Origin: a virus | Lineage: Duplodnaviria > Caudoviricetes | Direction: 5' to 3' (one strand) | IMG/VR virus record: IMGVR_UViG_3300032083_001059 | Span: 1-60,563 of that record | Length of the DNA stretch: 60,563 nucleotides | Shown: one piece after another, positions 421 to 60,226 of the stretch | Position numbering within the stretch: the first letter of the stretch is position 1 | How the letters are laid out: every line of letters begins with the position of its first letter | Translations under genes and position numbers: made by a program | The notes under the pieces: generated by a model | What the model was told of the DNA's origin: nothing | What the model saw: the letters and a program-made list of their open reading frames with translations, nothing else | The model's database searches: none

Positions 421-2330
421 AAAAATTTAGAGAATTAGTAGAGCAAAAAAACACAATAGTTTTTACTTTTGGTAGATTTAATCCACCAACGACTGGGCAT
501 GAGAAACTTATACAAAAAGTAAAGAGTGTTGCTGGTTCACAACCATTTCGTATCTATCCATCATTTTCACAGAATCAAAAGAAAGACCCACTACCACACG
601 CATTGAAGATTGCGTATATGAGAAAGATGTTTCCACAATATGCAAAAAATATAGTCGCAGATAAAAACTCTAGGACTGCAATTGATATTGCAGTTAAATT
701 ATATGATGAGGGATTTAAAAATTTAACAATGGTGGTAGGCTCTGATAGAGTAAAAGAGTTTGAAAGATTACTTAAAACTTACAATGGTGTTGATGGTAAA
801 AGACATGGGTACTACAAGTTTGACAATATTAATGTTGTAAGTGCTGGAGAAAGAGATCCAGATGCAGAGGGTGTAGAGGGAATGTCTGCATCTAAAATGA
901 GAACAGCTGCATCTGATAGTGATTTTGAATCATTTAAAAAAGGACTTCCATCTAATTTTAAAGATGATAAAAAACTTTATCTTGATGTTCGTAAATACAT
1001 GGGTATTCGTGAGCAAAGAGATATGGGTGAAATGACAGATATGGAATCACTTAGAGATTTATATTTGACTGGACAGATTTGGAACATAGACGATTTAGTA
1101 GAGGCAAATGGTGTTGAGGGCAGAATAATTCGTAGAGGAACAAATTATGTTGCGTTCAATGATAGAGATGGTAAAGTTCACAAAGCTTGGCTACATGAAA
1201 TAACAATAAATGAAATACAAAAAGGATTACGCAGAGTCAAGCAAGATCCAGACATTAAAGGTGATCCAGGCACAGAGCCAGCAAAGTATTATAAAGGTGT
1301 TGCAAAAAGTAAAAAGAAAGATAGAGATGACCATTTTGAAAAAGGTGCAAAAATGGACGATGATAATCCAGCTGCATATACACCAGCACCTGGCGATAAA
1401 GATAAATCTGGTAAATTAAAAAAGACTAAACCATCTAAATATACTCTTAAGTATAAGAAAATGTTTGGTGATGAATATGAAATAAATGAGAAGATTGCTG
1501 GACTTGTAAAGAAAGCAGATAAGTCTGGGGTGTCATATTCAATATTGAAACAAGTTTATAATCGTGGTATGGCTGCATGGAGAACTGGACATAGGCCAGG
1601 CACTACTCCACAGCAATGGGCATTTGCAAGAGTGAACTCATTTTTAACTGGTGGTGGTGCAAGAAAAGCTGATGCAGATTTGTGGACAAAAGCAAAAGCA
1701 AGTAAGAAAAGTAAAAAAGAAGATGTTGAGGTAGCTGCACTATTTAAACCAATTAAAGAAGCACAAGCAGTTGCAAACAATAAAGTTCACAGATTCATTA
1801 AAGGCCATGGCATAACATACAAAGGTAAAAAATATAAAGAGATTGAGTTTGAAAGAATAAAAATTGATAATGGAAGTAAAACAGTTACATTGAGAATGAT
1901 TGCACCTAAAGAACTTTTTGGAAAAGAAGTGCCAGTTAGTTTTAGATTCTTGAGGAGAGGGCCTTTTACAAAATTAGAAGTTCCAAATGCGTTTGAAGAA
2001 AAAACTGAAAAATTAAAAAAATTTAGTGATATGAATGAGTGGGGGCAAATAGTTCAAGAAGCAGAGTATCAAGGACGCAAAGTTAAATTAAATGACCCAT
2101 TTAGATTACCATCTGGTAGCACTAAAAAGTTTGGAGTTTATGTAAAGAATGAAAAAGGTAATATTATAAAGGTTACTTTTGGTGACCCAAATATGGAAAT
2201 AAAAAGAGATGACCCTAATCGTAGAAAAAATTTTCGTGCAAGGCATAATTGTGATAATCCAGGCCCTAAAACAAAAGCAAGATATTGGAGTTGTTTTCAA
2301 TGGCGCTCTGGTGCAAAGGTAGACAACTAA
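417..2330 (+). CDS. cytidyltransferase-like (HxGH nucleotidyltransferase) multidomain protein
   Basis: FTFGRFNPPTTGHEKL, VVGSDR and MSASKMR motifs; several appended C-terminal modules; MKKFRELVE leader. Confidence 0.85.
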   Translation: MKKFRELVEQKNTIVFTFGRFNPPTTGHEKLIQKVKSVAGSQPFRIYPSFSQNQKKDPLPHALKIAYMRKMFPQYAKNIVADKNSRTAIDIAVKLYDEGFKNLTMVVGSDRVKEFERLLKTYNGVDGKRHGYYKFDNINVVSAGERDPDAEGVEGMSASKMRTAASDSDFESFKKGLPSNFKDDKKLYLDVRKYMGIREQRDMGEMTDMESLRDLYLTGQIWNIDDLVEANGVEGRIIRRGTNYVAFNDRDGKVHKAWLHEITINEIQKGLRRVKQDPDIKGDPGTEPAKYYKGVAKSKKKDRDDHFEKGAKMDDDNPAAYTPAPGDKDKSGKLKKTKPSKYTLKYKKMFGDEYEINEKIAGLVKKADKSGVSYSILKQVYNRGMAAWRTGHRPGTTPQQWAFARVNSFLTGGGARKADADLWTKAKASKKSKKEDVEVAALFKPIKEAQAVANNKVHRFIKGHGITYKGKKYKEIEFERIKIDNGSKTVTLRMIAPKELFGKEVPVSFRFLRRGPFTKLEVPNAFEEKTEKLKKFSDMNEWGQIVQEAEYQGRKVKLNDPFRLPSGSTKKFGVYVKNEKGNIIKVTFGDPNMEIKRDDPNRRKNFRARHNCDNPGPKTKARYWSCFQWRSGAKVDN

Positions 2331-2342
2331 AGGAATGAAAAA

Positions 2343-5225
2343 ATGAGATATACTAACATATCTGACTTATACAGACAAGTAAAAGAAAGAACACTTACAC
2401 CTAAAGAACTTGAAGACCGAGAGAAGATTGCAAAAAAATTACCTATGGATGACTTCAAGAAAAGGTATGGTAAAGATGCAATGGCTGTTAAAATGGCAGT
2501 TGCAACTAATATTGCAAAGGGTAAATCAGAAGAAGTTGAGTTAGATGAGTTCAATAAAATGACTGTTACTGTAAATGACCCTAAACAAAGAAAAAAAGTA
2601 TTTGATGACTTAAAGAAACAGAAAAGATTAGATGTTTCTATGGGGCCTGGTAAGACTATCAAAGTGGATGGTAAAGGTAAGGCACTAAATCTTTTTGCAA
2701 AAGACATAATGAATTTTTATGATGCAGAAATCAGAGCAGAAGAAATAGAAGAAGATGCAAAGATGGCTAAACAATCTGATGATAATCTAAAGTCACTAAT
2801 GAAAAAGTTTCGTGACATGGAAAAGAAAGACCCAAAGATGCCTTCTACACAGTTTATGATTAAAAGACTTGGTAAAGAAATGAAAAAGCGTGGACTTAAA
2901 GAAGAACAATTAGATGAATTAAGACAACCATTCGTAGTTATTGATACTGCTAGAAATAATCAAGTTATAAGTACATCATCTGATGAAATGGGTGCAAAGA
3001 GTGCTGTTGCAAGTGCAGAACTTCCACCATTGAATGTTAAAGATAAGAAAACTTTAAAAATTGTTAAAACTCGCAAAAAACAAATGATTGGATATCCTCT
3101 CAAAGAAGAAACTGAACTTGATGAAGAATTAAAAGGTTTTCAAGTTGACTTTGGTAAAGGTATGAAACAAGGTAAAGCAATTTATAAGAATAAAAAAGAT
3201 GCAGAGGAATTTGCAGCTAGAAGAAAAAAGTTGGGTGAATTACCAGTAAAGATTACTCCAACTACTGTTAAAAATGCAAATATGTTTGATGACCCAATGG
3301 GGCCTAAAAGAAAAAGAATACCAGAAGAAACTGAACTTGATGAAAAGTATGACTTATATCACAAGACATTTTCTGGTGCAATGCAACATGCATACGACTA
3401 TGCAAAGAAAAAGATGGGTATAACAGTAGACCCAAAAGAGATTGACAGTAAAGTTGCAACTGGGCCTAAGAAACCATCTGAGGGTAAAACAAACAAATAC
3501 AGACTCAAAGGTAAAGGTGGTAACTTACAAATTCAAGTACACAATAAAGGTGGCTCAAAACCATTTGAGTTGAATATGTATAAAGAAGAATTTATTAATG
3601 AAGATGGACATGCTGATGTTGCATCTGCAATTCGTCAGTGTAAAACAATTACAGAAGATGCAATGCAAATTATGTCTAAACTTCAAGGCATGAATCCAGA
3701 GGAGTCATTACCAACTTGGTGGACAAACAAACTTGCAGTTGCATCAAACAGTATGAACAAAATGAGAGACTATCTCTTAGTTCCGTCTATGAAAGAATCA
3801 CTTGATAAAGAAGATGAACCTACTGTAAAAAAGGTTGTAAAAATGTTAAAGAAAGCAAGTCAAGCTCACGCTGGACAAGCAAAAGATTTAGAAAAAGCAA
3901 TTACTGAGCAACCAGAGCATGAAATCACAGTAGGTAATTATACTACTAAGTTTTTTCACATGTGTGGCTCTGCACAAAAAGTAATGAAGAAACATGCAGA
4001 TAAAGATGGTGCAGAAGAACTTACTCGTATGCAAGATGTATTCTATAAGATGGAAAAAGATATTATGATGAATGATGGTGGTGCAAGTAATAATCAGAAA
4101 AAGAAAGCAGAAATACTTTACGATAAAATTATTGCAAAAGCTAAAGAAGTTGGTATTGCAGACGAAGTTGATAAGTATATGAAATTACATTTAACATCTG
4201 TAACAAAAGGTGAACCAAAATTAGGATTTGGTAGAACTGATAAGCAAGAGCAAGTAAGTGAAGCTCCAAAAAGAGGAGAATATGCTTTAGTTCTTAAATC
4301 TAATGATAAAATTGCAGATGTTGGTAGTTTAAAAGATATGAGAACACAAAGAAGAAAATTAGGACAAAATAAATATGATGTTTACCCATCACAAGGTGGA
4401 ACACCAGGCGATAACCATAATAAAACTTGTCCACCAGTAAACGAGGAAAATGAAATGAATAAAGATTTAATAGATGCAGCTAAAAAAATTATGTTAGGTG
4501 AAAAAAAGACTGTACGACAGTTAGTTGATCCTAAAAAAGAAGTCATGGTTGTCAAGAAAAATAATGTAATAGTAATTGACAAAAAAGACCAAGACAAGTA
4601 TATGAAGATGGGATATCAACTCGCAGAAAAAGAAAAACTTGACCCTGTAAATCCAAAGGCTGTCAAAAAGAAGTTTGACGATAGAAAAGACAAAGACATT
4701 GACAATGATGGAGATGTTGATTCTACAGATAAGTATCTTCACAAAAGAAGAAAAGCAATTTCTAAAGCAGTAGCAAAAGAAGAAGTTGAACTTGATGAAT
4801 CAATGTCTGGAAAAGAGGTTGCAAAAAGAATGATGAAAATTCAACTGATGAAAGGTTTTGCACCTAAAGTCGCAAAGATGAAAACTGTAAATCGTAGTGA
4901 TTTAGAAAAGTTATTACCAGACTTTATTTCTGGTGGTGACATAACTAAAGTTTTACAAAAAGAAAACTATGAGATTGGAAAAGACTATGGTAAACATACT
5001 AGAGATGTAACTCCAGGCCAATCAAATGATGATTTTGAAAAAATGGTGGATGTCATGCAAAAGAAAAATACAAGTATGCGAGAAGCACTTGCAAAAGTTT
5101 GGAACACAACAGAGGGTAAAAATCCTTTTGTAAAAAAAGAAGAAAAACCTATGACTAAAACTATGACAGGTAAAACACCAACTAAAGTTGAAGTTAATCC
5201 AGAGGTAAAAGAAGATAAAAAGTGA
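2343..5225 (+). CDS. 960-aa modular putative head-internal polyprotein
   Basis: Short basic modules separated by EEVELDE/EEQLDE/EETELDE linkers; DIDNDGDVDSTD Ca-binding-like loop. Confidence 0.7.
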   Translation: MRYTNISDLYRQVKERTLTPKELEDREKIAKKLPMDDFKKRYGKDAMAVKMAVATNIAKGKSEEVELDEFNKMTVTVNDPKQRKKVFDDLKKQKRLDVSMGPGKTIKVDGKGKALNLFAKDIMNFYDAEIRAEEIEEDAKMAKQSDDNLKSLMKKFRDMEKKDPKMPSTQFMIKRLGKEMKKRGLKEEQLDELRQPFVVIDTARNNQVISTSSDEMGAKSAVASAELPPLNVKDKKTLKIVKTRKKQMIGYPLKEETELDEELKGFQVDFGKGMKQGKAIYKNKKDAEEFAARRKKLGELPVKITPTTVKNANMFDDPMGPKRKRIPEETELDEKYDLYHKTFSGAMQHAYDYAKKKMGITVDPKEIDSKVATGPKKPSEGKTNKYRLKGKGGNLQIQVHNKGGSKPFELNMYKEEFINEDGHADVASAIRQCKTITEDAMQIMSKLQGMNPEESLPTWWTNKLAVASNSMNKMRDYLLVPSMKESLDKEDEPTVKKVVKMLKKASQAHAGQAKDLEKAITEQPEHEITVGNYTTKFFHMCGSAQKVMKKHADKDGAEELTRMQDVFYKMEKDIMMNDGGASNNQKKKAEILYDKIIAKAKEVGIADEVDKYMKLHLTSVTKGEPKLGFGRTDKQEQVSEAPKRGEYALVLKSNDKIADVGSLKDMRTQRRKLGQNKYDVYPSQGGTPGDNHNKTCPPVNEENEMNKDLIDAAKKIMLGEKKTVRQLVDPKKEVMVVKKNNVIVIDKKDQDKYMKMGYQLAEKEKLDPVNPKAVKKKFDDRKDKDIDNDGDVDSTDKYLHKRRKAISKAVAKEEVELDESMSGKEVAKRMMKIQLMKGFAPKVAKMKTVNRSDLEKLLPDFISGGDITKVLQKENYEIGKDYGKHTRDVTPGQSNDDFEKMVDVMQKKNTSMREALAKVWNTTEGKNPFVKKEEKPMTKTMTGKTPTKVEVNPEVKEDKK
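3104..3344 (+). repeat. 22-bp exact direct repeat AGAAGAAACTGAACTTGATGAA (3104-3125, 3323-3344); variants at 2528, 2900, 4778
   Basis: Read directly; encodes the EETELDE linker. Confidence 0.9.
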
Positions 5226-5737
5226 AATTCATACAGCAATTACTAGAGGTAAATAAAGAAGATTTACCAGAAATTTATTGTGATATGGATCAAGTTTTAT
5301 GTAATTTTATGAAAGGTGCTGATAAAGCAGTTGGAGAACCTTTTATCTATGCAGATAGAGTAGATAGGTGGAAAAAGATTTCAAACACGAAAAATTTTTG
5401 GGCAAACCTAGAGTGGATGCCTGGAGCAAAAAGATTATATATGAGAATTGAAAAATATAATCCTCACATATTATCTGCATACTCAGATCGTGACAATAAT
5501 TCACGAGCTGGAAAAATGAAGTGGCTAAGTAGAAATACTAACTTTAAAAGAGGTAGAATACATTTGGTAAAAAGAGCACAAAAAAAAGATTATGCAACAA
5601 CAGATGGTAAACCAAATGTTTTAATTGATGATTATATAAAGAATATAAAAGAGTGGGAATCTAATGGTGGAATAGGTGTACATCACACAAGTGTTAGTAA
5701 AACAATGGGTGAACTTAACAGATTAGGTTTTAAATAA
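5222..5737 (+). CDS. HAD-family 5'(3')-deoxyribonucleotidase
   Basis: IYCDMDQVL (DxD), ILSA, K and LIDD motifs; GTG start; MKFIQQLLE leader. Confidence 0.85.
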   Translation: MKFIQQLLEVNKEDLPEIYCDMDQVLCNFMKGADKAVGEPFIYADRVDRWKKISNTKNFWANLEWMPGAKRLYMRIEKYNPHILSAYSDRDNNSRAGKMKWLSRNTNFKRGRIHLVKRAQKKDYATTDGKPNVLIDDYIKNIKEWESNGGIGVHHTSVSKTMGELNRLGFK

Positions 5738-5771: not shown

Positions 5772-6614
5772 ATGCCTTTAGCAAAAAGTTTTAATATCGT
5801 ACTGGAGGAATCCTCGGCTGAAAATGAATATGTTGTTTTAGATGGAACAGATAGCACTGGTGTTGCTGACTCTGGAGATAGAGTCATTGGGCTAGATGCA
5901 AGTCAAAGTGAAGCAAAACCAGAATGGTTAACTGAAGCAGCTGATGGGTCTGGAGATTACGCAAAAGAAAATGTTATCGCATTTGATGGTGGTTGGGGAT
6001 TTCAACCTGGCTCAGCTGCAACTGGTAACGATAACGCAAACGCAGATCCAGAAATTATATCTGCAATAAGAGGACTAAGAAAGTCAATAGATGTTCCTAC
6101 TGCACCACAAATAACAATAGGTAATGCATCAGATAAAACAAAGTATTATCCAGACGGAGATACTTTTAGTGGTGCTGCTTCATCATCTGCTGGTGATATT
6201 GTCGTGTATGTAAGATTTAACGAGCAAGTTGATGTTACAGGAACTCCACAATTGCAGTTGAAACAAGCAACTGCATTAGGTTCTAACTTTGGAACTATAA
6301 TGGATTTCAATACAACATACTCAGACTTATCAAATGGTATTGTTGCATTTGCATTAGCTGCTGGAACAGATACCAGAACAACAAATGTCACAAATAATAC
6401 TTTAGGTGTTAATTCAGATGATACTATCGGTTTAAACAGTGGCACAATTAGTAAAGTTGCTGGTGATAGAGTATTAGATGAAGAAGGTAATCCATTAAGA
6501 TTAGATTCTACTGCTGCTAATACGGACACAAATGGATTGTTAAGACTAGAAGGAATTATGGCTGCAGATTTAACAATGACTGCTGATGCAGACGCAAAGT
6601 TCACTGTATCTTAA
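5772..6614 (+). CDS. putative virion structural protein
   Basis: Acidic, G/A/T/D-rich, beta-rich (VRFNEQVDVTGTPQLQL); late promoter. Confidence 0.6.
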   Translation: MPLAKSFNIVLEESSAENEYVVLDGTDSTGVADSGDRVIGLDASQSEAKPEWLTEAADGSGDYAKENVIAFDGGWGFQPGSAATGNDNANADPEIISAIRGLRKSIDVPTAPQITIGNASDKTKYYPDGDTFSGAASSSAGDIVVYVRFNEQVDVTGTPQLQLKQATALGSNFGTIMDFNTTYSDLSNGIVAFALAAGTDTRTTNVTNNTLGVNSDDTIGLNSGTISKVAGDRVLDEEGNPLRLDSTAANTDTNGLLRLEGIMAADLTMTADADAKFTVS

Positions 6615-8288: not shown

Positions 8289-8902
8289 TGGGAAGAGCGA
8301 TAGATTTATTTGTTACATACAGATTTATCAAATTACTTACAACACCATTTCAAAAAACTGATGCATTTAAACTTGGCATCATAGATGAAAATGGTAATCG
8401 TATTCGTCAACCCAATTCTACAAAACCAGCTGTTGAGCTTGCTACAACAGAACAAAAAAACGCATACACAATACTTCACAAATTAGTTTTCAATATCAAA
8501 AAATTATTTGCAAAAGTGCCAGGCTTAAGAACTAAAGTTGGAACTTATGCAGCTGCACTATTTTTACTCAAAGATACATTCAAGGAGCATGTTGAAGATC
8601 CAGATATGTTTGAAAAAGAATTTATGAAATACTTAAAAGAAAATGATGTAGAATTAGATAACTCTATATCAGAAGAAGTTATAGGATTTGGTGAGATATT
8701 ACCAAAAGGTGAGTATGTTCTAATTAATGATATTCTAAATAAAGAAGAAGAAGAATTAACTGCAAAAAAAGGTGATAAAGTTATTGCATTTGATGATGAA
8801 TCACCAATTGATACAGTTTTGGGTGTTGAGATATTTCCAGTAGTGCATGATAAAACCCAAGAAAAAATTTATGTAAGTTTAGAGGATATTAAAAATGGGT
8901 AA
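8288..8902 (+). CDS. conserved T4-like hypothetical protein
   Basis: YRFIKLLTTPF...AFKLGIIDENG; translational coupling. Confidence 0.75.
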   Translation: MGRAIDLFVTYRFIKLLTTPFQKTDAFKLGIIDENGNRIRQPNSTKPAVELATTEQKNAYTILHKLVFNIKKLFAKVPGLRTKVGTYAAALFLLKDTFKEHVEDPDMFEKEFMKYLKENDVELDNSISEEVIGFGEILPKGEYVLINDILNKEEEELTAKKGDKVIAFDDESPIDTVLGVEIFPVVHDKTQEKIYVSLEDIKNG

Positions 8903-9422: not shown

Positions 9423-10673
9423 ATGAAAACATTTCAAGAGTATTACTCAAATTCTTTAGACACATATCCTTATGGTGGCGCATCAGTTGGGCCAGGAATG
9501 GGGCAATATGTTCCAGTTGCAGATCTTAATTTAAGAGCTCAAAAAGAAAAAGAAGTAAAAAAATCAGACATTGACCAACTTGAAAAATATGCAGATAGAT
9601 TATTTGGTGCAGTTGGTATAGATGTAGAATTTACACGACACTTTCTTGATCGTGTTAATGATGCAAGAAATAAAGTTCAAATCACACCATCAGAACTCAC
9701 TCGTCTATTCAGACAATCCTATAAAAAGTTTGGTAAAAGAATTGCAAAGTTAGGCCCTGATGCAGAGGCAGTTATTACGGATATGAAAACTGATATCAAC
9801 ATGCCTTTTGTTTTAAATTTAAAAGGTGGTGAATTAGAACTCATTGCAAAAACTGTAATGAGAAAGAAAGACTTTAAAACACAAAATCCAAAACTTGCAT
9901 TTGAGGGTATCGGAGAGCCAAACATATTCAGTCAAAAGAATCCTAGAATACCAAGAAAAAAAGGACAGCCAGCAAAGTCAAAGAAACATTCTGATTTATA
10001 TACAGATGAAGACCCAAAGGGAACAATACATGGCTTAGGTTTTAAAGATGTCGCAACTGCAAGAGCAAGTGTTAAAAAAATAGAATCATCTGGTAGAACA
10101 CACGCACATAAAATACAAGCTGCAATCGCAATGGAGCAAAGAGCAAGAGTGATGGGAAAAACAGCAGAGGCAAATGTTTATCGTGCATATATTGAAAAAA
10201 TGAAAAAGAAAACTAAAGAGATGAGAAAAGAAGATGCACATGGTTTTAACTGCCCGCCTGGATATAAATTTGATAAAAAATTAATGGCATGTGTTCCAAA
10301 GAAAACAAAATTTAAAACAGTATATGCATATCCATATTTTGGTGGTGGAACTAAGAGTGGAGACCAATCTGGAGAAACACAGAGTGGACAAAATGGAAAT
10401 GGGAATGGTAATGGTGGTAATGGTAATGGTAATGGTGGTAATGGTAATGGTGGAAATGGTGGTAATGGTGCAAGTGGAGGAGAATCATACATAGTTGCAG
10501 ATGTAAGAAAGATGTCTGGTGGTGGATATGGTGTATACGCAGATAAGTTCGTTAAAGGCAAAAGAGTTACACTACCAAGTGGTAAGCACGCAAAAGAACT
10601 TAAAAAAGTTTATCGTAGTAAAGAAAAGGCAAATAAATACATGGCTGCGATTATGATAGGAAAAGGTGGGTAA
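9423..10673 (+). CDS. modular putative internal protein with RegB/RelE-like domain
   Basis: MKTFQEY leader; VEFTRHFLDR motif; Cys-pair module; G/N linker. Confidence 0.6.
   Translation: MKTFQEYYSNSLDTYPYGGASVGPGMGQYVPVADLNLRAQKEKEVKKSDIDQLEKYADRLFGAVGIDVEFTRHFLDRVNDARNKVQITPSELTRLFRQSYKKFGKRIAKLGPDAEAVITDMKTDINMPFVLNLKGGELELIAKTVMRKKDFKTQNPKLAFEGIGEPNIFSQKNPRIPRKKGQPAKSKKHSDLYTDEDPKGTIHGLGFKDVATARASVKKIESSGRTHAHKIQAAIAMEQRARVMGKTAEANVYRAYIEKMKKKTKEMRKEDAHGFNCPPGYKFDKKLMACVPKKTKFKTVYAYPYFGGGTKSGDQSGETQSGQNGNGNGNGGNGNGNGGNGNGGNGGNGASGGESYIVADVRKMSGGGYGVYADKFVKGKRVTLPSGKHAKELKKVYRSKEKANKYMAAIMIGKGG
10392..10469 (+). repeat. (GGT AAT)n low-complexity repeat encoding a Gly/Asn linker
   Basis: Read directly. 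Confidence 0.85.
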
Positions 10674-11485
10674 TGAAAACATTTAAACAGTTTACTGAAA
10701 GTCTTTGGGCAAACATCCATAAAAAAAGACAGAGAATCAAAAGAGGCTCTGGTGAAAAAATGAGAAAAGTTGGTGATAAAGGAGCTCCTACACCAGCACA
10801 GATGAGGCGTGCAAAAGGTGAGGGATTTCGTGAGGAAATGAAATGTCCGCCTGCAACTCAAAATTTAAAGATTAATACAAAAAACAGAGATGCAACAATT
10901 AAAAACTATAACTATGGCCCTCTGAATGTTGATGAGCCAGGCGACTACTGGAAAAAAATTGCAAGATATTGGAAAACAACTGAACAAGCTGCAAAGAAGT
11001 CTGTATGTAATAACTGTGTTGCGTTTGATGTTTCACCAAGAATGTTAGAGTGTTTACCAGGCGAAACATCTGATAAAGATGGTCGTTTAGGTTATTGTTG
11101 GATGCATCACTTTAAGTGTCATTCTGCAAGAGCGTGTCATACTTGGGCAAAGGGTGGCCCAATTACAACAGATAAGAAATCACATGATTGGCAAGAGCGT
11201 GCAAAGATGACAGAAAGTGGCCACACGCAACTTGCAAAAACAAATATAAGACAAAAAAGAGAATTAGAAAGATTAAAGGTGCAACACGATAGAGAGGACG
11301 ATAGAGCAAGAAGTCAAGATGTTGCAAGAAAAAATATTCAAACAGAAAAAGCACCTAACACATCAGATGCAATGAAAAGATATAAATCAGGTAAAGCAGG
11401 ATTTACTGACATCGCACATTTAAAAGCAAAAGGTTTAATTAAAAGAAGTGATGGAACAAAAAGAAAATCTGATAAATATAAGTAA
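10673..11485 (+). CDS. modular putative internal protein with Cys-rich (HiPIP-like spacing) domain
   Basis: MKTFKQFTE leader; CNNCVAF...GYC...FKC...RACHTW. Confidence 0.6.
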   Translation: MKTFKQFTESLWANIHKKRQRIKRGSGEKMRKVGDKGAPTPAQMRRAKGEGFREEMKCPPATQNLKINTKNRDATIKNYNYGPLNVDEPGDYWKKIARYWKTTEQAAKKSVCNNCVAFDVSPRMLECLPGETSDKDGRLGYCWMHHFKCHSARACHTWAKGGPITTDKKSHDWQERAKMTESGHTQLAKTNIRQKRELERLKVQHDREDDRARSQDVARKNIQTEKAPNTSDAMKRYKSGKAGFTDIAHLKAKGLIKRSDGTKRKSDKYK

Positions 11486-11509: not shown

Positions 11510-12271
11510 ATGGGAAGAGCTAGAGAACTTGCAAGAGGTGGTTCAGGAAACTTTAATGATGCGTTGGTATTAGATACTGCAGCTGATGTTGGAGATAATA
11601 TTTTATTAGATGGAACTGATACCTCTGCAACTAATGCTGGATTTAATCTTACATTAGAAAATGCATCTAGCGATGGTTCAAGTGTTGTAGTTAATGCAAA
11701 TTTAGATGATATAGATGGATATAAAAATGCTGTAGCAGATAGAAAAATAGTATTACCAAATGTAAGCACTGGCGATATGCTTACAACAAGTTCTGTTGCT
11801 GAAACAACAAAAGTGCCAATGTTTTGGGTTACACCAGCTGCTGCTAAAACTATTTCTGATGCTACAAATGCTGTCGTAGAATATGACAATGTTCACTTTG
11901 ATACACATAGTGCATGGGATAATTCAAATTATAGATATGTTGCACCTATTGCTGGATACTATTGGATAAGTATGGGTATATTTTTTGACACTACAGCTCA
12001 TGTTCAAACTCTTTGCACAGCTAGTATAAGATATAATGGTGATACAGTTAATCTTGGTTCTGGTAGAGTAATGTTAAGAAACGGAACTGATAACAATGAA
12101 TCTGAATTAGGTGGTTCTGCAGCTTGGATTATTTATTTTAATGGAACATCTGATTATGTAGATGGTTATGCATATATGGACGCAGATGGAACAAGAACTA
12201 TTTTAGGTGGTACAGGATATAATCAATCTTGGTTGTGTGGTTATCTATTAAGAGCAGGAGTACAAGTATGA
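11510..12271 (+). CDS. C1q-domain fibre/adhesin
   Basis: FDTHSAWDNSNYRYVAPIAGYYWI is C1q-like; GATAAATA late-promoter variant at 11471. Confidence 0.7.
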   Translation: MGRARELARGGSGNFNDALVLDTAADVGDNILLDGTDTSATNAGFNLTLENASSDGSSVVVNANLDDIDGYKNAVADRKIVLPNVSTGDMLTTSSVAETTKVPMFWVTPAAAKTISDATNAVVEYDNVHFDTHSAWDNSNYRYVAPIAGYYWISMGIFFDTTAHVQTLCTASIRYNGDTVNLGSGRVMLRNGTDNNESELGGSAAWIIYFNGTSDYVDGYAYMDADGTRTILGGTGYNQSWLCGYLLRAGVQV

Positions 12272-15430: not shown

Positions 15431-17162
15431 TGAAGATCGTGATAAACTTCTTTCAGAACAAGCCCAAAAATTATTAAAAGATTATTATTGCAGAGGTGAT
15501 GAAACTTCACCACAGATGGCATTTGCTAGAGCTGCTTATGCTTATTCTTTTGATGATAAAGGACTTGCTCAAAGAATTTATGACTACGCATCACAAGGGT
15601 GGTTTATGTATTCATCACCAGTTTTATCAAACGCACCTTTACCTAAAGAAAAAGTAAAGGCATTACCAATATCATGTTTTCTTGCATATGTTCCTGATTC
15701 ATTAGATGGATTGATTGACCACACTTCTGAATTGAGATGGTTAGCAGTTAAAGGTGGTGGTGTTGGTGGACACTGGAGTGCAGTTCGTTCAGTATCTGAT
15801 ATTGCCCCTGGCCCTATTCCATTTTTACACACAGTAGATGCAGACATGACTGCGTATCGTCAAGGTAAAACTCGTAAAGGTTCTTATGCAGCTTACTTAG
15901 ACATATCGCACCCAGACATCATTGAGTTTTTATCTATTCGTATACCAACAGGTGATGTTGGAAGAAAGTGCTTAAATCTACATCACGCAGTTAATATTAC
16001 AGATGACTTTATGAAAGCTGTTAGAGATGATACAGATTGGAATCTACTTGACCCCAATGATAAGTCTGTTAGAGAAACACTGAAAGCTCGTAAGATATGG
16101 GAAACAATATTAGAAACAAGATTTAGAACTGGTGAGCCTTATCTTAATTTTATTGATACTGCAAATCGTTATTTACCAGAATCAATGAAAGAAAAAGGAC
16201 TTAAAATTCATGGCTCAAATTTATGTAATGAAATACATTTACCTACAAACGAAGAAAGAACAGCAGTTTGTTGCTTATCATCACTTAATTTAGAAAAGTA
16301 TGATGAATGGAAAGATACACGAATTGTGCAAGACTTAATTCGTTTCTTGGATAATGTGTTACAATTTTTTATTGGACACGCACCAGACACAGTAAAGCGT
16401 GCAAAATACTCTGCAATACAAGAAAGAAGTCTTGGATTGGGTGCAATGGGTTTACACTCTTACTACCAAAAACATCGTATTGCGTTTGATTCTGATGCAG
16501 CTGCAATTTTAAACACAGAAATATTTGCAAAGATTAAAAGAGATGCAGTAGAAGAAACAGAGATACTTGCAAAAGAGCGTGGTGAAGCACCAGATATGAA
16601 AGGAACTGGTAGAAGAAATGCACATTTACTTGCTATTGCTCCAAATGCAAATAGTTCAATGATTGTAAGTTGTTCTCCATCAATTGAGCCACACAAAGCA
16701 AACGCATACACGCATAGAACAAGAGCTGGTTCACATTTAATTAAGAACAAGTACCTTGAAGAAGAATTAATTAAAGTCAACATGAATACACCAGAAGTTT
16801 GGACTTCAATTATTACAAATGGTGGCTCTGTTCAGCAATTAGAATTTTTAGATAATGAAGTTAAAGAAGTATTTAAAACTGCTATAGAAATTAATCAGAA
16901 AGTTTTAGTAGAGCAAGGTGGAGATAGACAGAAGTTTTTATGTCAAGGACAATCACTTAATCTTTTCTTTCCAGCTGGTGCAACAAAAAGTTATTTACAT
17001 AAAGTTCACATGAGAGCATGGGAAACAGAGTGCAAGGGATTATATTATTTAAGAACTGAAACATCTCAGCGTGCCGAGAATGTTGCAGAAAAAGTAGAGT
17101 TAGATAAATTAGTAGATTATAAAAACACAGAAGAAGATGACTGTGTTGCTTGTCAAGGATAG
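15402..17162 (+). CDS. nrdA: class I ribonucleotide reductase alpha subunit (no ATP cone)
   Basis: ISCFL, SNLCNEI, APNANSS, LYYLR, C-terminal CVACQG. Confidence 0.95.
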   Translation: MKKYLGIKINEDRDKLLSEQAQKLLKDYYCRGDETSPQMAFARAAYAYSFDDKGLAQRIYDYASQGWFMYSSPVLSNAPLPKEKVKALPISCFLAYVPDSLDGLIDHTSELRWLAVKGGGVGGHWSAVRSVSDIAPGPIPFLHTVDADMTAYRQGKTRKGSYAAYLDISHPDIIEFLSIRIPTGDVGRKCLNLHHAVNITDDFMKAVRDDTDWNLLDPNDKSVRETLKARKIWETILETRFRTGEPYLNFIDTANRYLPESMKEKGLKIHGSNLCNEIHLPTNEERTAVCCLSSLNLEKYDEWKDTRIVQDLIRFLDNVLQFFIGHAPDTVKRAKYSAIQERSLGLGAMGLHSYYQKHRIAFDSDAAAILNTEIFAKIKRDAVEETEILAKERGEAPDMKGTGRRNAHLLAIAPNANSSMIVSCSPSIEPHKANAYTHRTRAGSHLIKNKYLEEELIKVNMNTPEVWTSIITNGGSVQQLEFLDNEVKEVFKTAIEINQKVLVEQGGDRQKFLCQGQSLNLFFPAGATKSYLHKVHMRAWETECKGLYYLRTETSQRAENVAEKVELDKLVDYKNTEEDDCVACQG

Positions 17163-17170
17163 GGGAAAAA

Positions 17171-46362: not shown

Positions 46363-46554
46363 ATGAATAAAAATTATAAAGTTTTAAGTGAATTTTATGG
46401 AAATGAAATTGAAACTAATAAAGTAATAGTAGTTTTCAATGGTTTAAGGCAAAGATATGAAGTCATGCATGATGGTGTTTTAGTGGACTCATGCTTAACA
46501 GAGCAAGTAGCACAAAACGCTGCAGAGGACTATATCAATGAAAAAGGTTTATGA
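46363..46554 (+). CDS. hypothetical protein
   Basis: GGAG RBS; AQNAAEDY. Confidence 0.6.
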   Translation: MNKNYKVLSEFYGNEIETNKVIVVFNGLRQRYEVMHDGVLVDSCLTEQVAQNAAEDYINEKGL

Positions 46555-46755: not shown

Positions 46756-47631
46756 ATGACACTCGCACTTATTGTTTTAGGTGTTGCACTTGCAATATCT
46801 GGAGTAGCTGCATTTTATAGTATCGTAGGTTTGATGGCGATATTTTCTGCAGCTTCAAGTTCAATCGCAATCATGGGAACTGTATTGGAAGTTGGTAAAC
46901 TTGCAACAGCATCATGGTTGTATCAAAATTGGAAAAAAATACCAAAGTTACTTAAATACTATTTGACAAGTGCAGTCGTAGTTCTTATGTTTATCACAAG
47001 TATGGGTATCTTTGGTTATCTATCTAAATCACACATAGACGCTGGAACAGGCACATCAGAATTATATGTTAAGTTAGAAAGACTTGACAGTAATATAGAA
47101 TCAGAAAAAAAAGATATTAGTCGTGCAGAAAGTCAATTAGAAAAGTTAGACTCTGCACTTGAAAAATATATTGAACTTGATGCAGTTTCAAAAGGATTAA
47201 GAAAACGAGATGAGCAAAAACCAGAGAGAGATAAACTTTCACAAATAGTAGAAGAATCTCAAGATAAGATTGATGTATATTTAGATGAGCGTGCAGAGAT
47301 ACAATTACAAATCAAAAGTTTTGAAGTAGAAGTTGGGCCACTCAAATATATTTCTGCACTTATATTTGGTGAAAGTGATTCTGTTAATTACTTGGACAAA
47401 GCAGTTCGTTATGTAATTATATTATTGATATTTGTTTTTGATCCACTTGCAGTATTAATGTTAATAGCCGCAAATATGAGCTTAAAAGAAGAGCAACAAA
47501 AAAGAAAAAGAAAAGAAAAAGTAAAGATTCCAAAAGATGCAATGAAAACTAAAGTAACAAACGATGAGCAAACTGGTATGAAGTTAGTTACTAAAGAAAA
47601 GAATGGAGTTCAAATACAATATTATGAGTAG
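46756..47631 (+). CDS. multi-TM plus coiled-coil conserved phage membrane protein
   Basis: YSIVGL, LEVGKL, TSMGIFGYLSK, EVGPLKY, FVFDPLAV. Confidence 0.75.
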   Translation: MTLALIVLGVALAISGVAAFYSIVGLMAIFSAASSSIAIMGTVLEVGKLATASWLYQNWKKIPKLLKYYLTSAVVVLMFITSMGIFGYLSKSHIDAGTGTSELYVKLERLDSNIESEKKDISRAESQLEKLDSALEKYIELDAVSKGLRKRDEQKPERDKLSQIVEESQDKIDVYLDERAEIQLQIKSFEVEVGPLKYISALIFGESDSVNYLDKAVRYVIILLIFVFDPLAVLMLIAANMSLKEEQQKRKRKEKVKIPKDAMKTKVTNDEQTGMKLVTKEKNGVQIQYYE

Positions 47632-50897: not shown

Positions 50898-51176
50898 ATG
50901 AAATATTGGTTATCAGTAGTATCTATGCTACTCGCATCATGTTTATTATATGTGTTAACTCTAAACACAATGATACACGCAAAAGAAATTGATTGGTCAA
51001 AATATGATTTACCAGACATAGGTGAAGATAAAATGTGGTGCATGTTTACTGAATATGAGATGGTAAATGAAGAGCGACAATTTATGATATGCACATACAC
51101 TTGTCAAAATGGTATGCTAGTAAATATGCCAGGCATTGGTAGATGCAGACGAGATATTCAAGAAATTAGGTGGTAA
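50898..51176 (+). CDS. secreted Cys-rich hypothetical protein
   Basis: Signal peptide; C...CTYTC...C. Confidence 0.55.
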   Translation: MKYWLSVVSMLLASCLLYVLTLNTMIHAKEIDWSKYDLPDIGEDKMWCMFTEYEMVNEERQFMICTYTCQNGMLVNMPGIGRCRRDIQEIRW

Positions 51177-56553: not shown

Positions 56554-57489
56554 ATGGAAACATTTTTATGGGTAGAAAAGTATCGTCCAGATACAATTGA
56601 ATCTTGCATACTACCAAGTGAACTGAAAGAAACATTTGGTGAGTTTGTAAAAGACAAGCACATACCAAACTTAATCTTATCAGGTGGGCCTGGTGTAGGT
56701 AAAACCACAGTTGCAAAGTCAATGATAAATCAGATTGGCTCAACATACATGATGATAAACGGATCAGAAGAATCTGGGATTGATGTTCTTAGAACTAAAA
56801 TTAAAAACTTTGCATCAACAGTTTCACTTGAGGGTGGTAGAAAATACATTATACTAGATGAGGCAGACTATCTCAATCCACAATCTACTCAGCCTGCACT
56901 TCGTGGATTCATGGAAGAATTTCACAAGAACTGTGGATTTATTCTGACTTGCAATTTTAAGAATCGCTTGATATCACCACTGCAATCAAGATGCAGTAAT
57001 GTAGATTTCATCATACCAAAGAAAGACAAGCCTAGACTAGCTCAAGACTTCTTCATTAGTGTGACAAATATACTTAAGAAAGAAAATGTAGAGTATGATA
57101 AGAAAGTTGTGCTTGAGTTGATTACTAAATATTTTCCAGATTGGAGAAGAATACTCAATGAACTACAGAGATATTCTGCATCAGGTAAAATAGATGCAGG
57201 CTTACTCGTCAATCTAAAAGAGGAGCATATTAATGACCTTATGGTATCACTCAAAAAGAAAGAATTTAAGAAAGTACGAGAATGGGTTGTACAGCATATT
57301 GATAACGATCCAATGCGTATTTATCGCCTTATTTATGACTCTCTGTATGATAATGTGGATGGTTCTACTATCCCCCATGCTGTTGTTAGCATTGCTGACT
57401 ACAGTTACAAAGCATCCTTTGTCGCAGATCAAGAGATAAATCTACTTGCGTGCTTAACAGAGCTCATGGCTCAATGCAAATTTAAGTAA
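56554..57489 (+). CDS. 44: clamp loader large subunit gp44
   Basis: WVEKYRP, GPGVGKT, DEAD, SRC. Confidence 0.95.
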   Translation: METFLWVEKYRPDTIESCILPSELKETFGEFVKDKHIPNLILSGGPGVGKTTVAKSMINQIGSTYMMINGSEESGIDVLRTKIKNFASTVSLEGGRKYIILDEADYLNPQSTQPALRGFMEEFHKNCGFILTCNFKNRLISPLQSRCSNVDFIIPKKDKPRLAQDFFISVTNILKKENVEYDKKVVLELITKYFPDWRRILNELQRYSASGKIDAGLLVNLKEEHINDLMVSLKKKEFKKVREWVVQHIDNDPMRIYRLIYDSLYDNVDGSTIPHAVVSIADYSYKASFVADQEINLLACLTELMAQCKFK

Positions 57490-59005: not shown

Positions 59006-59020
59006 ATTTTTTGATATAAT
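58992..59020 (+). promoter_or_regulatory. sigma70-type promoter TTGACT-17-TATAAT (extended -10)
   Basis: Near consensus, upstream of MTase. Confidence 0.75.
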
Positions 59021-59029
59021 ACTTACATT

Positions 59030-60226
59030 ATGAAATACTTTAGATATACACTAGATGACTTGAAGAAGTCATCAGACAGAAAACTTTTTACCTATATTTC
59101 TTTCTTCTCAGGTGGAGGTGGGAGCTCTGCTGGGTACAAGCTTGCAGGCGGAGATTGCTTCTTTGTGAATGAATTTCAAAGAGTTGCAATGGACACTTAC
59201 CTTGCAAACTGGCCTGGAACTCCCAACATCTGCGATGACATTAGAAAAGTAACAGGTAATCAAGTCTTAGAGAAGATGAATATACCACAAGGAGAATTAG
59301 ATATTCTTGATGGTAGCCCACCATGCCCACCATTTTCCATGTCAGGAACAAAGCAAAAAGGGTGGGGTAAAGAGAAAACTGCATACGGCATCAAGCAAAA
59401 GAACATTGAGGACTTAACTTGGGAGCAAATACGCATTGCAAAAGATGTTAAACCAAGAGTAATTGTGTGCGAAAATGTCAAGGGATTGACAATGGAATAT
59501 GCAAAAGAGCATTTACAAAGAATGGTAAATGACTTTGAATCACTAGGATATTCCACATTGTACAAGGTTCTCAAGGGTAGTAATCATGGCGTTCCACAAA
59601 AGAGAGAAAGAGTCTTTATTGTATCAGTAAGAAATGATGTTCTTGATGCGATAGGAGTACCCTTTATGGTATTGGATTCATTGGTTTTTCCTACTCCTGA
59701 TGAGGTATCTCCTACAATACGAGATGCGATAGAGGATATACAAAAGGATAAGAATAATCTTCTTGAATCACAAGAACTTTGCGATGCAATGAAAAAGTCT
59801 GCAAAGTATAAGTGGATGAAGCGATTACCCAAGAATCCAAAGACATATGTATCCGTTGGTGATGATGTAGTAGGGCCTTGGTATGATAAACTCATTGCAC
59901 ATAGAGCAAAATGGGGTAAAACCATACCAGAAAGAAAGCAATCATTCTATCAATCAAGGAGAGTTGGGTGGGATAATCCATCGCACACTTTATCAGAGCA
60001 AGGACTACAAACATCACTTGCAGTGCATTTACACCCATGCGAGGATAGAGTATACACAACAAGAGAAGCTGCAAGAATAATGACACTACCAGAAGATTAC
60101 AAGTTTACAGGAACATTGAACGAGAAACTTGCAAGAATAGGATTGATGGTTGCACCATTACAGATGAAATACCTTGCAGAGAACATTTACGCAAATATCT
60201 TGAGGCCATACCATGACACTTTATAG
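59030..60226 (+). CDS. orphan C5-cytosine DNA methyltransferase
   Basis: FSGGGG, GSPPCPPFS, ENV, PQKRERV, R.YT.REAARI. Confidence 0.93.
   Translation: MKYFRYTLDDLKKSSDRKLFTYISFFSGGGGSSAGYKLAGGDCFFVNEFQRVAMDTYLANWPGTPNICDDIRKVTGNQVLEKMNIPQGELDILDGSPPCPPFSMSGTKQKGWGKEKTAYGIKQKNIEDLTWEQIRIAKDVKPRVIVCENVKGLTMEYAKEHLQRMVNDFESLGYSTLYKVLKGSNHGVPQKRERVFIVSVRNDVLDAIGVPFMVLDSLVFPTPDEVSPTIRDAIEDIQKDKNNLLESQELCDAMKKSAKYKWMKRLPKNPKTYVSVGDDVVGPWYDKLIAHRAKWGKTIPERKQSFYQSRRVGWDNPSHTLSEQGLQTSLAVHLHPCEDRVYTTREAARIMTLPEDYKFTGTLNEKLARIGLMVAPLQMKYLAENIYANILRPYHDTL

Follow-up and report, generated by a model that had tools for sequence, protein, structure and literature searches.

Conditional restriction-site avoidance in a marine T4-like phage suggests protection by an orphan cytosine methyltransferase of probable GpC[C/T] specificity

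The window, a 60,563-nt stretch of DNA from a marine, T4-like phage, carries an orphan cytosine-C5 methyltransferase gene, ORF 59030 (Table 1). The upstream neighbours of this gene are gp44, an EndoVII/HNH-like ORF, gp62, RegA and one or more small ORFs; downstream, in a record 98.6% identical to the window (L004), small ORFs are followed by UvsX. No restriction endonuclease gene was found among the neighbours of the methylase in the window or L004, which makes it an orphan. The ORF matches PF00145 over profile positions 1–323 of 324 (E 8.6e-57, 193.4 bits against a cut-off of 22), and its best PDB match is SpCmoX (8YF3), with 41% identity over the full length, variable region included (E 1.8e-78). 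The catalytic Pro-Cys of motif IV is present as SPPC at residues 96–99, where the Cys aligns with the catalytic residue of both HhaI and SpCmoX. The Gly-Asn of motif X (HhaI N304) is absent: GLMV at residue 371 aligns with GNSV in HhaI and GRMV in SpCmoX, leaving a Leu at the position of CmoX R350 and HhaI N304. A megablast search of the 3' 5.5 kb of the window against GenBank phages gave no match. At least half of the 3' 10 kb is covered in 17 sequencing runs from 7 studies, all in the form of assembled contigs, which are blind to base modification.

What chemistry might this enzyme perform? SpCmoX is the cytosine C5-carboxymethyltransferase of Synechococcus phage S-B43 (PDB 8YF3; PMC12783734). 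According to the parts of that paper drawn on here, it modifies a GC motif in nanopore and oligonucleotide assays, its product blocks HhaI, and the mark of a CmoX is SPPC together with Arg350, which binds the carboxyl of Cx-SAM. The first-pass annotation had named the orphan gene at 59030 as the candidate, and this is supported: it is a PF00145 enzyme, related to a GC-specific one, with no restriction gene adjoining. Like SpCmoX, it has SPPC and sits in the same T4-like replication module (S-B43 belongs to the Kyanoviridae); unlike SpCmoX, it has Leu in place of the carboxyl-binding Arg. This Leu was found in 77 of 77 loci of the window's type where the position was covered, and Arg in 12 of 12 loci under 60% identity. 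CmoA (TIGR00740) was absent at E ≤ 10 from the window (39% complete) and from the complete genome of Melnitz, a cultured OM43 phage, and at E ≤ 0.01 from the L004 record, and was present in three of four records of the Arg type; no CmoY was seen. Because Arg350 is replaced by Leu and CmoA was not found, ORF 59030 would not count as a carboxymethyltransferase by the criteria given in those parts of PMC12783734, and we dropped this reading after the negative CmoA searches in the window, Melnitz and L004.

In 66 of 77 sequences with this methylase type, the next gene after the orthologue is a parallel TET/JBP gene; nine end too soon to tell and two are without it. None was found in the window, which ends about 340 nt past the gene, or in the next 9.66 kb of L004, and the window's own lineage apparently has no TET beside the methylase. 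With neither the arginine of CmoX nor CmoA nor a TET beside the methylase, the most likely modification in the window phage is 5mC. Most relatives, to which a TET dioxygenase is added, probably carry 5hmC or more.

We then turn to the sites. An exhaustive scan of the window returned 30 CCWGG sites, the number that had been counted by eye, including all 16 whose coordinates had been quoted. Every one is preceded by G or followed by C (16 by a preceding G, 19 by a following C, five by both, none by neither), so that the flank matrix is occupied only in its G row and C column; the second base upstream is free, with g, t, c and a each represented. We compared the counts with 300 shuffles preserving the amino-acid sequences and overall codon usage. 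HCCWGGD occurs 0 times against 25.3±3.0 expected (lowest shuffle 17), whereas GCCWGG occurs 16 times against 6.1 and CCWGGC 19 times against 3.1. The total of 30 against 34.0 shows that CCWGG as such is not depleted. Given the shuffle flanking rate of 0.256, the probability of 30 flanked sites out of 30 is ~2e-18.

Table 1. The candidate methyltransferase gene and the flanked CCWGG and CTGCAG sites of the window
Feature	Position	Strand	Basis
Orphan cytosine-C5 DNA methyltransferase, 398 aa, candidate GpC[C/T] modifier	59030..60226	+	PF00145 + 8YF3 SpCmoX match
CCWGG, C after	1266..1270	.	exhaustive scan; in-frame Pro-Gly
CCWGG, C after	1389..1393	.	exhaustive scan; in-frame Pro-Gly
CCWGG, G before + C after	1596..1600	.	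exhaustive scan; in-frame Pro-Gly
CCWGG, C after	2259..2263	.	exhaustive scan; in-frame Pro-Gly
CCWGG, G before	2646..2650	.	exhaustive scan; in-frame Pro-Gly
CCWGG, C after	4404..4408	.	exhaustive scan; in-frame Pro-Gly
CCWGG, C after	5013..5017	.	exhaustive scan; in-frame Pro-Gly
CCWGG, G before	5420..5424	.	exhaustive scan; in-frame Pro-Gly
CCWGG, C after	6006..6010	.	exhaustive scan; in-frame Pro-Gly
CCWGG, G before + C after	8519..8523	.	exhaustive scan; in-frame Pro-Gly
CCWGG, G before	9492..9496	.	exhaustive scan; in-frame Pro-Gly
CCWGG, G before	10257..10261	.	exhaustive scan; in-frame Pro-Gly
CCWGG, G before + C after	10937..10941	.	exhaustive scan; in-frame Pro-Gly
CCWGG, C after	11057..11061	.	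exhaustive scan; in-frame Pro-Gly
CCWGG, C after	15807..15811	.	exhaustive scan; in-frame Pro-Gly
CCWGG, C after	21017..21021	.	exhaustive scan; in-frame Pro-Gly
CCWGG, G before	24700..24704	.	exhaustive scan; in-frame Pro-Gly
CCWGG, G before	24739..24743	.	exhaustive scan; in-frame Pro-Gly
CCWGG, G before + C after	27874..27878	.	exhaustive scan; in-frame Pro-Gly
CCWGG, C after	28684..28688	.	exhaustive scan; in-frame Pro-Gly
CCWGG, C after	29515..29519	.	exhaustive scan; in-frame Pro-Gly
CCWGG, G before, in minus-strand gene	36490..36494	.	exhaustive scan; in-frame Pro-Gly
CCWGG, G before, in minus-strand gene	38633..38637	.	exhaustive scan; in-frame Pro-Gly
CCWGG, C after	40121..40125	.	exhaustive scan; in-frame Pro-Gly
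CCWGG, C after	40679..40683	.	exhaustive scan; in-frame Pro-Gly
CCWGG, C after	41918..41922	.	exhaustive scan; in-frame Pro-Gly
CCWGG, G before	43346..43350	.	exhaustive scan; in-frame Pro-Gly
CCWGG, G before + C after	51129..51133	.	exhaustive scan; in-frame Pro-Gly
CCWGG, G before	56689..56693	.	exhaustive scan; in-frame Pro-Gly
CCWGG, G before, inside methylase gene	59213..59217	.	exhaustive scan; in-frame Pro-Gly
CTGCAG, G before	6562..6567	.	CTGCAG scan, 7/7 flanked
CTGCAG, C after	11577..11582	.	CTGCAG scan, 7/7 flanked
CTGCAG, C after	12117..12122	.	CTGCAG scan, 7/7 flanked
CTGCAG, C after	21138..21143	.	CTGCAG scan, 7/7 flanked
CTGCAG, G before	30259..30264	.	CTGCAG scan, 7/7 flanked
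CTGCAG, G before	46520..46525	.	CTGCAG scan, 7/7 flanked
CTGCAG, C after	46847..46852	.	CTGCAG scan, 7/7 flanked

The 30 sites coincide exactly with the 30 in-frame Pro-Gly dipeptides of the window, and none is intergenic; off-frame CCWGG is absent against 5.5 expected, as in 2 of 200 shuffles. Read along the gene, all 16 sites without a preceding G use GGC for Gly (the first-pass annotation had seen Pro-Gly often forced into CCA GGC), in a window where GGC makes up 102 of 1123 Gly codons. After a preceding G, GGC is used in only 5 of 14, and GGA or GGT at the other nine, AGGA contexts included (Fisher p 1.4e-4 for the either/or dependency). The two sites in minus-strand genes keep the rule. 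Gly-Pro is always written with GGC or GGG, which avoids GGWCC. Confirmed as real, the flank rule acts alike on the two strands and is specific for G ahead of a leading C.

Other words behave in related ways in the window. The absence of GGWCC, CCGG, TCGA and ACGT noted by eye was borne out (0 against 30.4, 10.7, 69.8 and 110.3), as were the survival of GGNCC as GGSCC (34 against 9.3) and the commonness of TGCA (537 against 372.9), AGCT (146 against 148.1) and GGCC (60 against 30.2). All seven CTGCAG sites are flanked (HCTGCAGD 0 against 6.5±2.3), and CCTGC/GCAGG occurs 3 times unflanked against 40.7 and 9 times flanked against 5.7. On the other hand, some GpC-containing words are still avoided, CGCG (0 against 15.7) and GTGCAC (0 against 6.4) wholly and GCGC in part (10 against 25.9). 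GAATTC, TCTAGA, AGTACT, ACCTGC, GAATGC and ACSGT are also absent.

Does the rule extend to relatives? In Melnitz, HCCWGGD and GGWCC are absent against 68.5 and 66.2 expected, and in 76 IMG/VR loci carrying the methylase at 65–98% identity HCCWGGD occurs 4 times against 177. In the pooled 795.6 kb, unflanked and flanked counts are 4 against 277.7 and 242 against 131.3 for CCWGG, 13 against 247 and 65 against 104 for CCGG, and 3 against 114.5 and 62 against 57.8 for CTGCAG. An unbiased scan of all 4–6-mers with each of the four 5' flanks returned 19 rescues, 14 of them C-initial words rescued by G, and for CCTGAA, CCTGCA and CCCGT the flank effect did not differ between the strands. Every lineage carrying the Leu-type methylase has purged HCCWGGD, GGWCC and CGCG. 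Avoidance of ACGT, TCGA, GATC, CATG and AGCT varies between lineages; the absence of ACGT and TCGA, real in the window, belongs to particular sub-lineages and does not go with the methylase, to which it had been linked. Unflanked CCWGG amounts to 4 of 246 in the Leu-type clade against 14 of 28 in relatives with the different, CmoX-type enzyme. In S-B43, for which GC modification has been demonstrated, eight CCGG survive, every one with a G/C flank (unflanked 0 against 164 expected), and only one of them overlaps GGCC.

The first-pass annotation had attributed the survival of sites to overlap with any GpC. The flank rule is seen again at CCGG, CTGCAG and CCTGC, as well as in Melnitz and the 76 contigs, but not at every GpC: rescue contexts were GCC (CCWGG, CCGG, CCTGC, CCCGT) and GCT (CTGCAG), with none at GCG or GCA; G flanks did not rescue CGCG, CGWCG or CTTAAG, nor CATG in L025 and L026; and TGCGCA and unflanked CTGCAG are purged despite containing GpC. 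Given the missing rescue at GCG and GCA and the purging of CGCG, GTGCAC and CTGCAG without a flank, GpC[C/T] matches the footprint better than GpC in general does. Against this motif, AGCT is avoided in Melnitz (132 against 380 expected), although its GCT should be modified.

We consider it likely that the phage C5-MTase modifies GpC, probably GpC[C/T], and so shields overlapping sites from host restriction. After replication, the product of ORF 59030 would modify the C of GpC, probably only before C or T, in hosts that would carry restriction enzymes for CCWGG, GGWCC, CCGG, CTGCAG, CCTGC-type words and many more. Where G precedes the outer C, one or both strands of the recognition sequence would contain a modified base and the site would remain uncut; such copies would be tolerated and the remaining ones lost by synonymous change. 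As Pro-Gly makes CCNGG unavoidable, selection would have fixed either Gly as GGC or a codon ending in G ahead of Pro. We infer the modification itself, its exact motif and chemistry, and restriction enzymes as the selective agent from observed word statistics, codon logic, clade-wide conservation of the rule, enzyme homology and gene context. It counts against the proposal that most G/C-flanked sites would carry the modification on one strand only. None of 8 6-mer palindromes with GCY was strongly avoided against 14 of 48 others, which is the expected direction but not significant (p 0.18); C/T differences, as a sign of 5mC hypermutability, were not enriched at GCY between the window and L004 (7 of 194 against 83 of 2894, p 0.51, with low power; 9,216 aligned nt, 101 differences counted); and GCNGC, the target of 5mC-dependent BisI-type enzymes, was not avoided (789 against 827, pooled).

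Could another methylase, of the host or a second phage enzyme, make the protective overlap, with ORF 59030 having another motif or role? The cyanophages S-T4 and S-CREM1, which have no PF00145 gene, also keep mostly flanked CCGG (11 of 13 and 8 of 8), and therefore flank footprints do not require PF00145 enzymes; in these two, the flanking GG makes the site overlap GGCC, at 8 of 13 and 7 of 8 sites. The Melnitz host also encodes a type II methylase, as stated in the part of PMC9004378 used here. Yet GGCC-type methylation misfits the free second base upstream of CCWGG in the window. The footprint also occurs in every lineage with the Leu-type enzyme and is weaker with the other type, and characterised relatives of ORF 59030 have, as far as the cited parts of their descriptions go, exactly the required specificity. 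We consider it unlikely that another methylase is the source. DNA-polymerase-based loci (HCCWGGD 8 against 186 with no methylase in the locus; 15 against 63 with either type) were rejected as a methylase-free control, being mostly short, so that absence from the locus is uninformative.

The selective agent may also be sought in the phage itself. The part of PMC7029224 cited here reports hardly any restriction-modification systems in SAR11 genomes, and for this reason the agent is undocumented in the likely hosts. Because avoidance of HCCWGGD, GGWCC and CGCG is constant across lineages while such hosts are reportedly nearly restriction-free, this avoidance is maybe not host-directed. A phage-borne nuclease acting on unmodified host DNA, with GpC[C/T] modification and site purging as self-immunity in a restriction-modification-like takeover module, would be a long shot.

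Cleavage rates of some type II enzymes depend on flanking bases, and flanked CCGG is itself still depleted in S-B43 and the controls, to ~0.15 of expectation, as would be seen if host enzymes merely cut poorly when G precedes or C follows and no modification were involved. However, this would need one and the same G exemption to apply across five or more unrelated specificities (CCWGG, CCGG, CTGCAG, CCTGC, CCCGT), and an absolute one at that, given the pooled CCWGG counts; moreover, the CCWGG sites of enzyme-less cyanophages follow no such rule. In five cyanomyophages lacking PF00145, CCWGG is not avoided, and they therefore provide no test of the flank rule there. We find poor cutting very improbable. 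Still harder to credit is a translational effect, either a CCA-GGC codon-pair preference or avoidance of Shine-Dalgarno-like AGGA/AGGT. In P-HM1, a phage without a C5-MTase, CCWGGY is retained and CCWGGR absent, a strand-asymmetric pattern resembling a coding-strand effect, and Melnitz avoids CCTCC/GGAGG (3 against 151), but the freedom of GGA and GGT after a preceding G, the either/or requirement and the equality of the strands, minus-strand genes included, speak against it. That GCCWGG is itself a selected signal for recombination, packaging or regulation, as its 3–6-fold excess together with CCWGGC might suggest, can practically be dismissed, since the sites are exactly the Pro-Gly dipeptides and their total is at expectation.

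Returning to modification by the phage's own enzyme, how does it compare with known systems? The parts of PMC8256090 (Burke et al. 2021) drawn on here describe metavirome C5-MTs paired with TET/JBP that are GpC[C/T]-specific by EM-seq, with some clades GpCN and one not GpCA. Like these enzymes from ocean viromes, the window enzyme is a phage-encoded orphan PF00145 protein, and its footprint implies GpC[C/T]; its orthologues share the gene arrangement that was that paper's search criterion (a TET/JBP gene in parallel orientation, no more than five genes from the methylase), whereas the window lineage apparently has no TET adjoining. The analogy with chlorovirus M.CviPI, proposed at first, holds for a viral orphan C5 enzyme. 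However, M.CviPI, a eukaryotic-virus enzyme compared here by its description as cited in PMC8256090, targets the dinucleotide GpC throughout, whereas the footprint gives no protection at GCG or GCA. By structure match for SpCmoX and by gene arrangement for the TET-paired enzymes, these phage enzymes are probably closer than M.CviPI. The palindromic and type IIS sites wholly absent from the window, such as ACGT, TCGA, GAATTC, ACCTGC and GAATGC, resemble classical phage restriction-site avoidance; unlike it, avoidance here depends on whether a site overlaps the predicted modification motif of the phage itself. The literature we searched gave no description of such a conditional rule, and the parts of PMC8256090 drawn on here predict restriction protection and mention neither avoided sites nor a rule on flanks.

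The GpC[C/T] methylases of phages and the GC-specific CmoX have been characterised in E. coli or one cyanophage, and restriction protection was only predicted, as far as the cited parts of PMC8256090 and PMC12783734 go. The window, Melnitz and dozens of ocean contigs would provide, through sequence statistics, an evolutionary record of the modification working in nature, in which no site survives unless it overlaps the motif, and even the Gly codon that follows Pro is chosen accordingly. It remains a puzzle that restriction avoidance is so extreme when almost no restriction systems are said to exist in the presumed hosts (SAR11/OM43 types). Melnitz, in which the analysis identifies gene 6 as a predicted TET dioxygenase, would be a culturable system for testing the idea. 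As avoidance is conditional on the phage's own motif, the in vivo specificity of a methylase may be readable from sequence, which would also yield a catalogue of more than 12 restriction specificities met by the phage.

We ran the check proposed in the first-pass annotation, i.e., k-mer counts against a codon-preserving shuffle, with a null model of 300 shuffles in which synonymous codons were permuted among all predicted genes while the proteins and codon usage were kept. Thirty CCWGG sites had been counted by eye, all preceded by G or followed by C. The exhaustive scan returned exactly 30, with G before in 16, C after in 19, and both in 5, and the 4 × 4 matrix of flanking bases was filled in its G row and C column and in no other cell. 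Unflanked sites (HCCWGGD) numbered 0 compared with 25.3 ± 3.0 expected (shuffle minimum, 17), the flanked forms were in excess (GCCWGG, 16 vs. 6.1; CCWGGC, 19 vs. 3.1), and the total was unchanged (30 vs. 34.0). The sites reported as missing were indeed missing (GGWCC, 0 vs. 30.4; ACGT, 0 vs. 110.3; TCGA, 0 vs. 69.8; CCGG, 0 vs. 10.7), HCCWGGD and GGWCC thus both lying far below expectation. GGNCC occurred, as described, in its GGSCC form (34 vs. 9.3), and the words described as common were so by count (TGCA, 537 vs. 372.9; AGCT, 146 vs. 148.1; GGCC, 60 vs. 30.2). We consider the observation on the CCWGG flanks confirmed and its interpretation, namely that phage GpC-type methylation lies behind the pattern, supported.

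Could the either/or requirement stem from a codon-pair habit? All 30 CCWGG sites are in-frame Pro-Gly, the window proteome contains exactly 30 Pro-Gly dipeptides, and off-frame CCWGG numbers 0 compared with 5.5 expected. Because Pro-Gly forces CCNGG, and because the purging of CCGG closes CCSGG, CCWGG is unavoidable at Pro-Gly. GGC encodes the Gly following Pro in 21 of the 30 dipeptides, although it makes up just 102 of the 1123 Gly codons overall. With a base other than G before Pro, 16/16 Gly codons are GGC; with G there, 5/14 are (p = 1.4 × 10^−4). This dependence on the preceding base marks the flank requirement as a constraint at the DNA level rather than a codon-pair habit. At the 30 Gly-Pro dipeptides, Gly is invariably written GGC or GGG, by which GGWCC is avoided.

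The window (60,563 nt, 32.4% G+C) is an entire IMG/VR viral contig with a CheckV completeness of 39%. Its replication genes are of the T4 type and include a family B DNA polymerase, the clamp loader gp44/gp62, RegA, and a ribonucleotide reductase. Among named phages, the OM43 myophage Melnitz (Kyanoviridae) is the closest relative, with protein identities of 78.6% for the methylase and 61.4% for the polymerase. DNA near-identical to the window was found in 17 metagenome runs (seawater, marine, or biofilm) from 7 studies. Three small single-organism runs (X18–X20), which contain 28–42% of the sampled words of the window's 3′ 10 kb, might represent infected cells. The position of the Endonuclease VII/HNH-like ORF between the two clamp loader genes looks like a homing-endonuclease insertion.

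Coordinates of selected features in the window
Feature	Position	Strand	Remarks
637-aa protein	417–2330	+	DUF5824; N-terminus weakly cytidylyltransferase-like
Ribonucleotide reductase small subunit-glutaredoxin fusion	17150–18409	+	
gp44 clamp loader	56554–57489		Directly 5′ of the Endonuclease VII/HNH-like ORF
Endonuclease VII/HNH-like ORF	57490–57924	+	PF02945, E 4e-8; phrog_2633
gp62 clamp loader	57917–58312		3′ of the Endonuclease VII/HNH-like ORF

The rule extends beyond CCWGG and beyond this contig. In the window, CTGCAG is flanked in 7/7 cases (unflanked, 0 vs. 6.5), and CCTGC/GCAGG is depleted when unflanked (3 vs. 40.7) and retained when flanked (9 vs. 5.7). In the complete Melnitz genome, we counted HCCWGGD 0 vs. 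68.5, GCCWGG 39 vs. 15.1, CCWGGC 45 vs. 11.2, and GGWCC 0 vs. 66.2, and in 76 related IMG/VR loci (593.5 kb; methylase 65–98% identical), HCCWGGD 4 vs. 177, GGWCC 18 vs. 268, and CGCG 7 vs. 210. Over the pooled 795.6 kb, unflanked CCGG (13 vs. 247) and CTGCAG (3 vs. 114.5) are depleted, the flanked forms numbering 65 vs. 104 and 62 vs. 57.8, respectively. Furthermore, an unbiased scan of all 4–6-mers with each 5′ flank base, in which one flank had to lift an at least tenfold avoidance, yielded 19 rescues, 14 of which were C-initial words rescued by G (among them CCWGG, CCGG, CCCGTA, CCTGAA, CCTGCA, CCTGCG, and CCTCCT). The flank effects were equal on both strands. Avoidance of ACGT, TCGA, GATC, CATG, and AGCT varies among the sub-lineages.

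The only four unflanked CCWGG sites in the related loci are L019:3138, L039:3259, L051:4109, and L030:4559; since three of them have a common sequence context, these three probably represent a single conserved gene position. A reverse pattern was also seen in the pooled clade of the window's methylase, in which GCCAGC is depleted (16 vs. 69) and HCCAGC enriched (1001 vs. 587), and in which G/C-flanked CTAG (220 vs. 531) is more depleted than unflanked CTAG (1133 vs. 1257).

Which GpC contexts protect? Rescue was seen at GCC and GCT. G did not rescue CGCG or CGWCG (GCG context), nor did it rescue CATG (GCA context) in L025 and L026, two loci in which CATG is purged. GTGCAC, unflanked CTGCAG, and TGCGCA, each with an internal GCA or GCG, are purged, and GCGC shows a gradient from RGCGCY (102 vs. 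90.7) through one-sided flanks (71 vs. 140.9) to TGCGCA (1 vs. 40.4). Among 6-mer palindromes, strong avoidance affects 0/8 of those with GCY compared with 14/48 of the others (p = 0.18). AGCT is depleted in Melnitz, although GCT would be expected to be modified. The GC[C/T] context was derived from the rescue and purging counts independently of PMC8256090, and its agreement with the specificity of TET-paired methylases published there, reported from EM-seq as GpC[C/T], with some clades modifying all GpC and one all but GpCA, is suggestive rather than conclusive.

Several other words deviate as well. TGCA is over-represented in the window (537 vs. 373), Melnitz (1182 vs. 949), and the 76 loci (4551 vs. 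3176), and CpG is low (620 vs. 837). In the pooled clade, H-flanked CGACG and CGTCG are purged (6 vs. 564), and counts of CGATCG, CGTACG, and CGTTCG are low too, which would fit an avoidance of CpG pairs lying close together.

The candidate enzyme, ORF 59030–60226, belongs to the cytosine-C5 methyltransferases of PF00145, and its neighbourhood contains no restriction gene. Its closest solved structure is 8YF3 (E 1.8e-78, 41% identity over the full length), the SpCmoX of cyanophage S-B43, which is reported, from nanopore motif finding and oligonucleotide assays, to place a carboxymethyl group onto cytosine C5 within a GC motif, giving a product that blocks HhaI (PMC12783734). CmoX is defined there by SPPC and Arg350. 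The window enzyme shares SPPC, but has Leu at the Arg350 position, as do 77/77 loci of its type; a second type, <60% identical, has Arg in 12/12 loci (10 distinct records). CmoA was not found in the window (39% complete), the near-identical contig, or the complete Melnitz genome, whereas it is present in 3/4 Arg-type records searched (E about 1e-39). Given the Leu residue and the lack of CmoA, the enzyme is a sister of CmoX rather than a CmoX itself.

The Arg-type records are close relatives (L131, L139, L144, L129, L142, L146, L148, L149, L153, and L178), with polymerases 72–74% identical to that of the window. L131, L139, and L144 each have two distinct CmoX-like C-terminal matches, which may be tandem paralogues.

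C5-MT/TET pairs have been described in ocean viromes by Burke et al. 2021 (PMC8256090). Gene 6 of Melnitz (L001:5208–6194), annotated as hypothetical, encodes a TET/JBP dioxygenase (PF12851; 43 bits against a cut-off of 34.9) and overlaps the methylase gene at the latter's end; Melnitz DNA would accordingly be expected to contain 5hmC or a derivative. A TET homologue lies directly downstream of the methylase in 66 of the 77 sequences with the Leu-type enzyme, the window included in the 77; of the remaining 11, 9 stop before a TET gene could show, and 2 lack it despite sufficient room. One of these two, L004, matches the window at 98.6% identity across 9,216 nt and extends 9.66 kb past its end. 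A further methylase, 99% identical, lies on a contig of 138.5 kb (cluster P0002). Because the TET gene was found neither in the window nor in L004, this lineage apparently has the methylase without a TET partner, and its likeliest product would be plain 5mC, with no 5cxmC expected.

Five cyanomyophages without any PF00145 gene served as controls. CCWGG is not avoided in them; consequently, the flank rule is not assessable at CCWGG there. In P-HM1 (L107–110, L217–221), CCWGGY is kept while CCWGGR has nearly vanished (1 vs. about 33), and this strand-asymmetric lack is a different phenomenon. At CCGG, 11/13 sites were flanked in S-T4 (L119–122, L207–211) and 8/8 in S-CREM1 (L123–126, L212–216), both without a C5-MTase; surviving sites had a GG flank, i.e., a GGCC overlap, in 8/13 and 7/8 cases, which looks like a footprint of GGCC-type methylation. 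In S-B43, in which GC modification is proven, 8/8 CCGG sites are flanked, with a GGCC overlap in only 1. Overlap footprints are therefore general, with the flanking bases reflecting the motif that is methylated; for the same reason, flanked CCGG in MTase-less phages means that a flank footprint by itself is no proof that the phage enzyme is the cause. Unflanked CCWGG accounted for 14/28 sites in the Arg-type relatives (14 vs. 27.2 expected) compared with 4/246 in the Leu-type clade. GCNGC is not avoided, and a 5mC hypermutability test gave no informative signal.

Beside the observed counts, codon dependency, conservation, homology, and synteny, we infer that the DNA is modified, with what chemistry, and that restriction enzymes act on it. 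The methylase would modify the C of GC[C/T] on the replicated genome. At a site whose first C follows G, the modified base would lie inside the site on one strand and adjacent to it on the other; with both flanks fitting, it would lie inside on both strands. Cleavage of such a site would be blocked and the copy tolerated, while every unprotected copy would be lethal in some host and thus removed.

The avoidance catalogue is large (ACGT, TCGA, CGCG, ACSGT, GGWCC, ACCTGC, GAATGC, GAATTC, TCTAGA, AGTACT, TCATGA, ACTAGT, and TGATCA); in the window, ACSGT numbers 0 vs. 37, ACCTGC 0 vs. 21, and GAATGC 0 vs. 15, and GAAGAGA (0 vs. 14) and GTCTC-containing words (1 vs. 13–20) are absent or nearly so as well. 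This sits oddly with SAR11 genomes, only one of >100 of which is reported to hold a restriction system (PMC7029224), and the size of the catalogue calls for explanation.

Both the class of enzyme and a specificity for GpC[C/T] or GC have been published before. In full-text searches of the literature, we found no prior account of the conditional avoidance rule or its Pro-Gly codon expression, of the TET gene in cultured Melnitz, or of the Leu/Arg split. The genomic footprint is what is instructive here. The Leu/Arg difference would divide the enzymes of one phage group into a methyl type and a carboxymethyl type, and Melnitz provides a cultured system for the C5-MT/TET pair.
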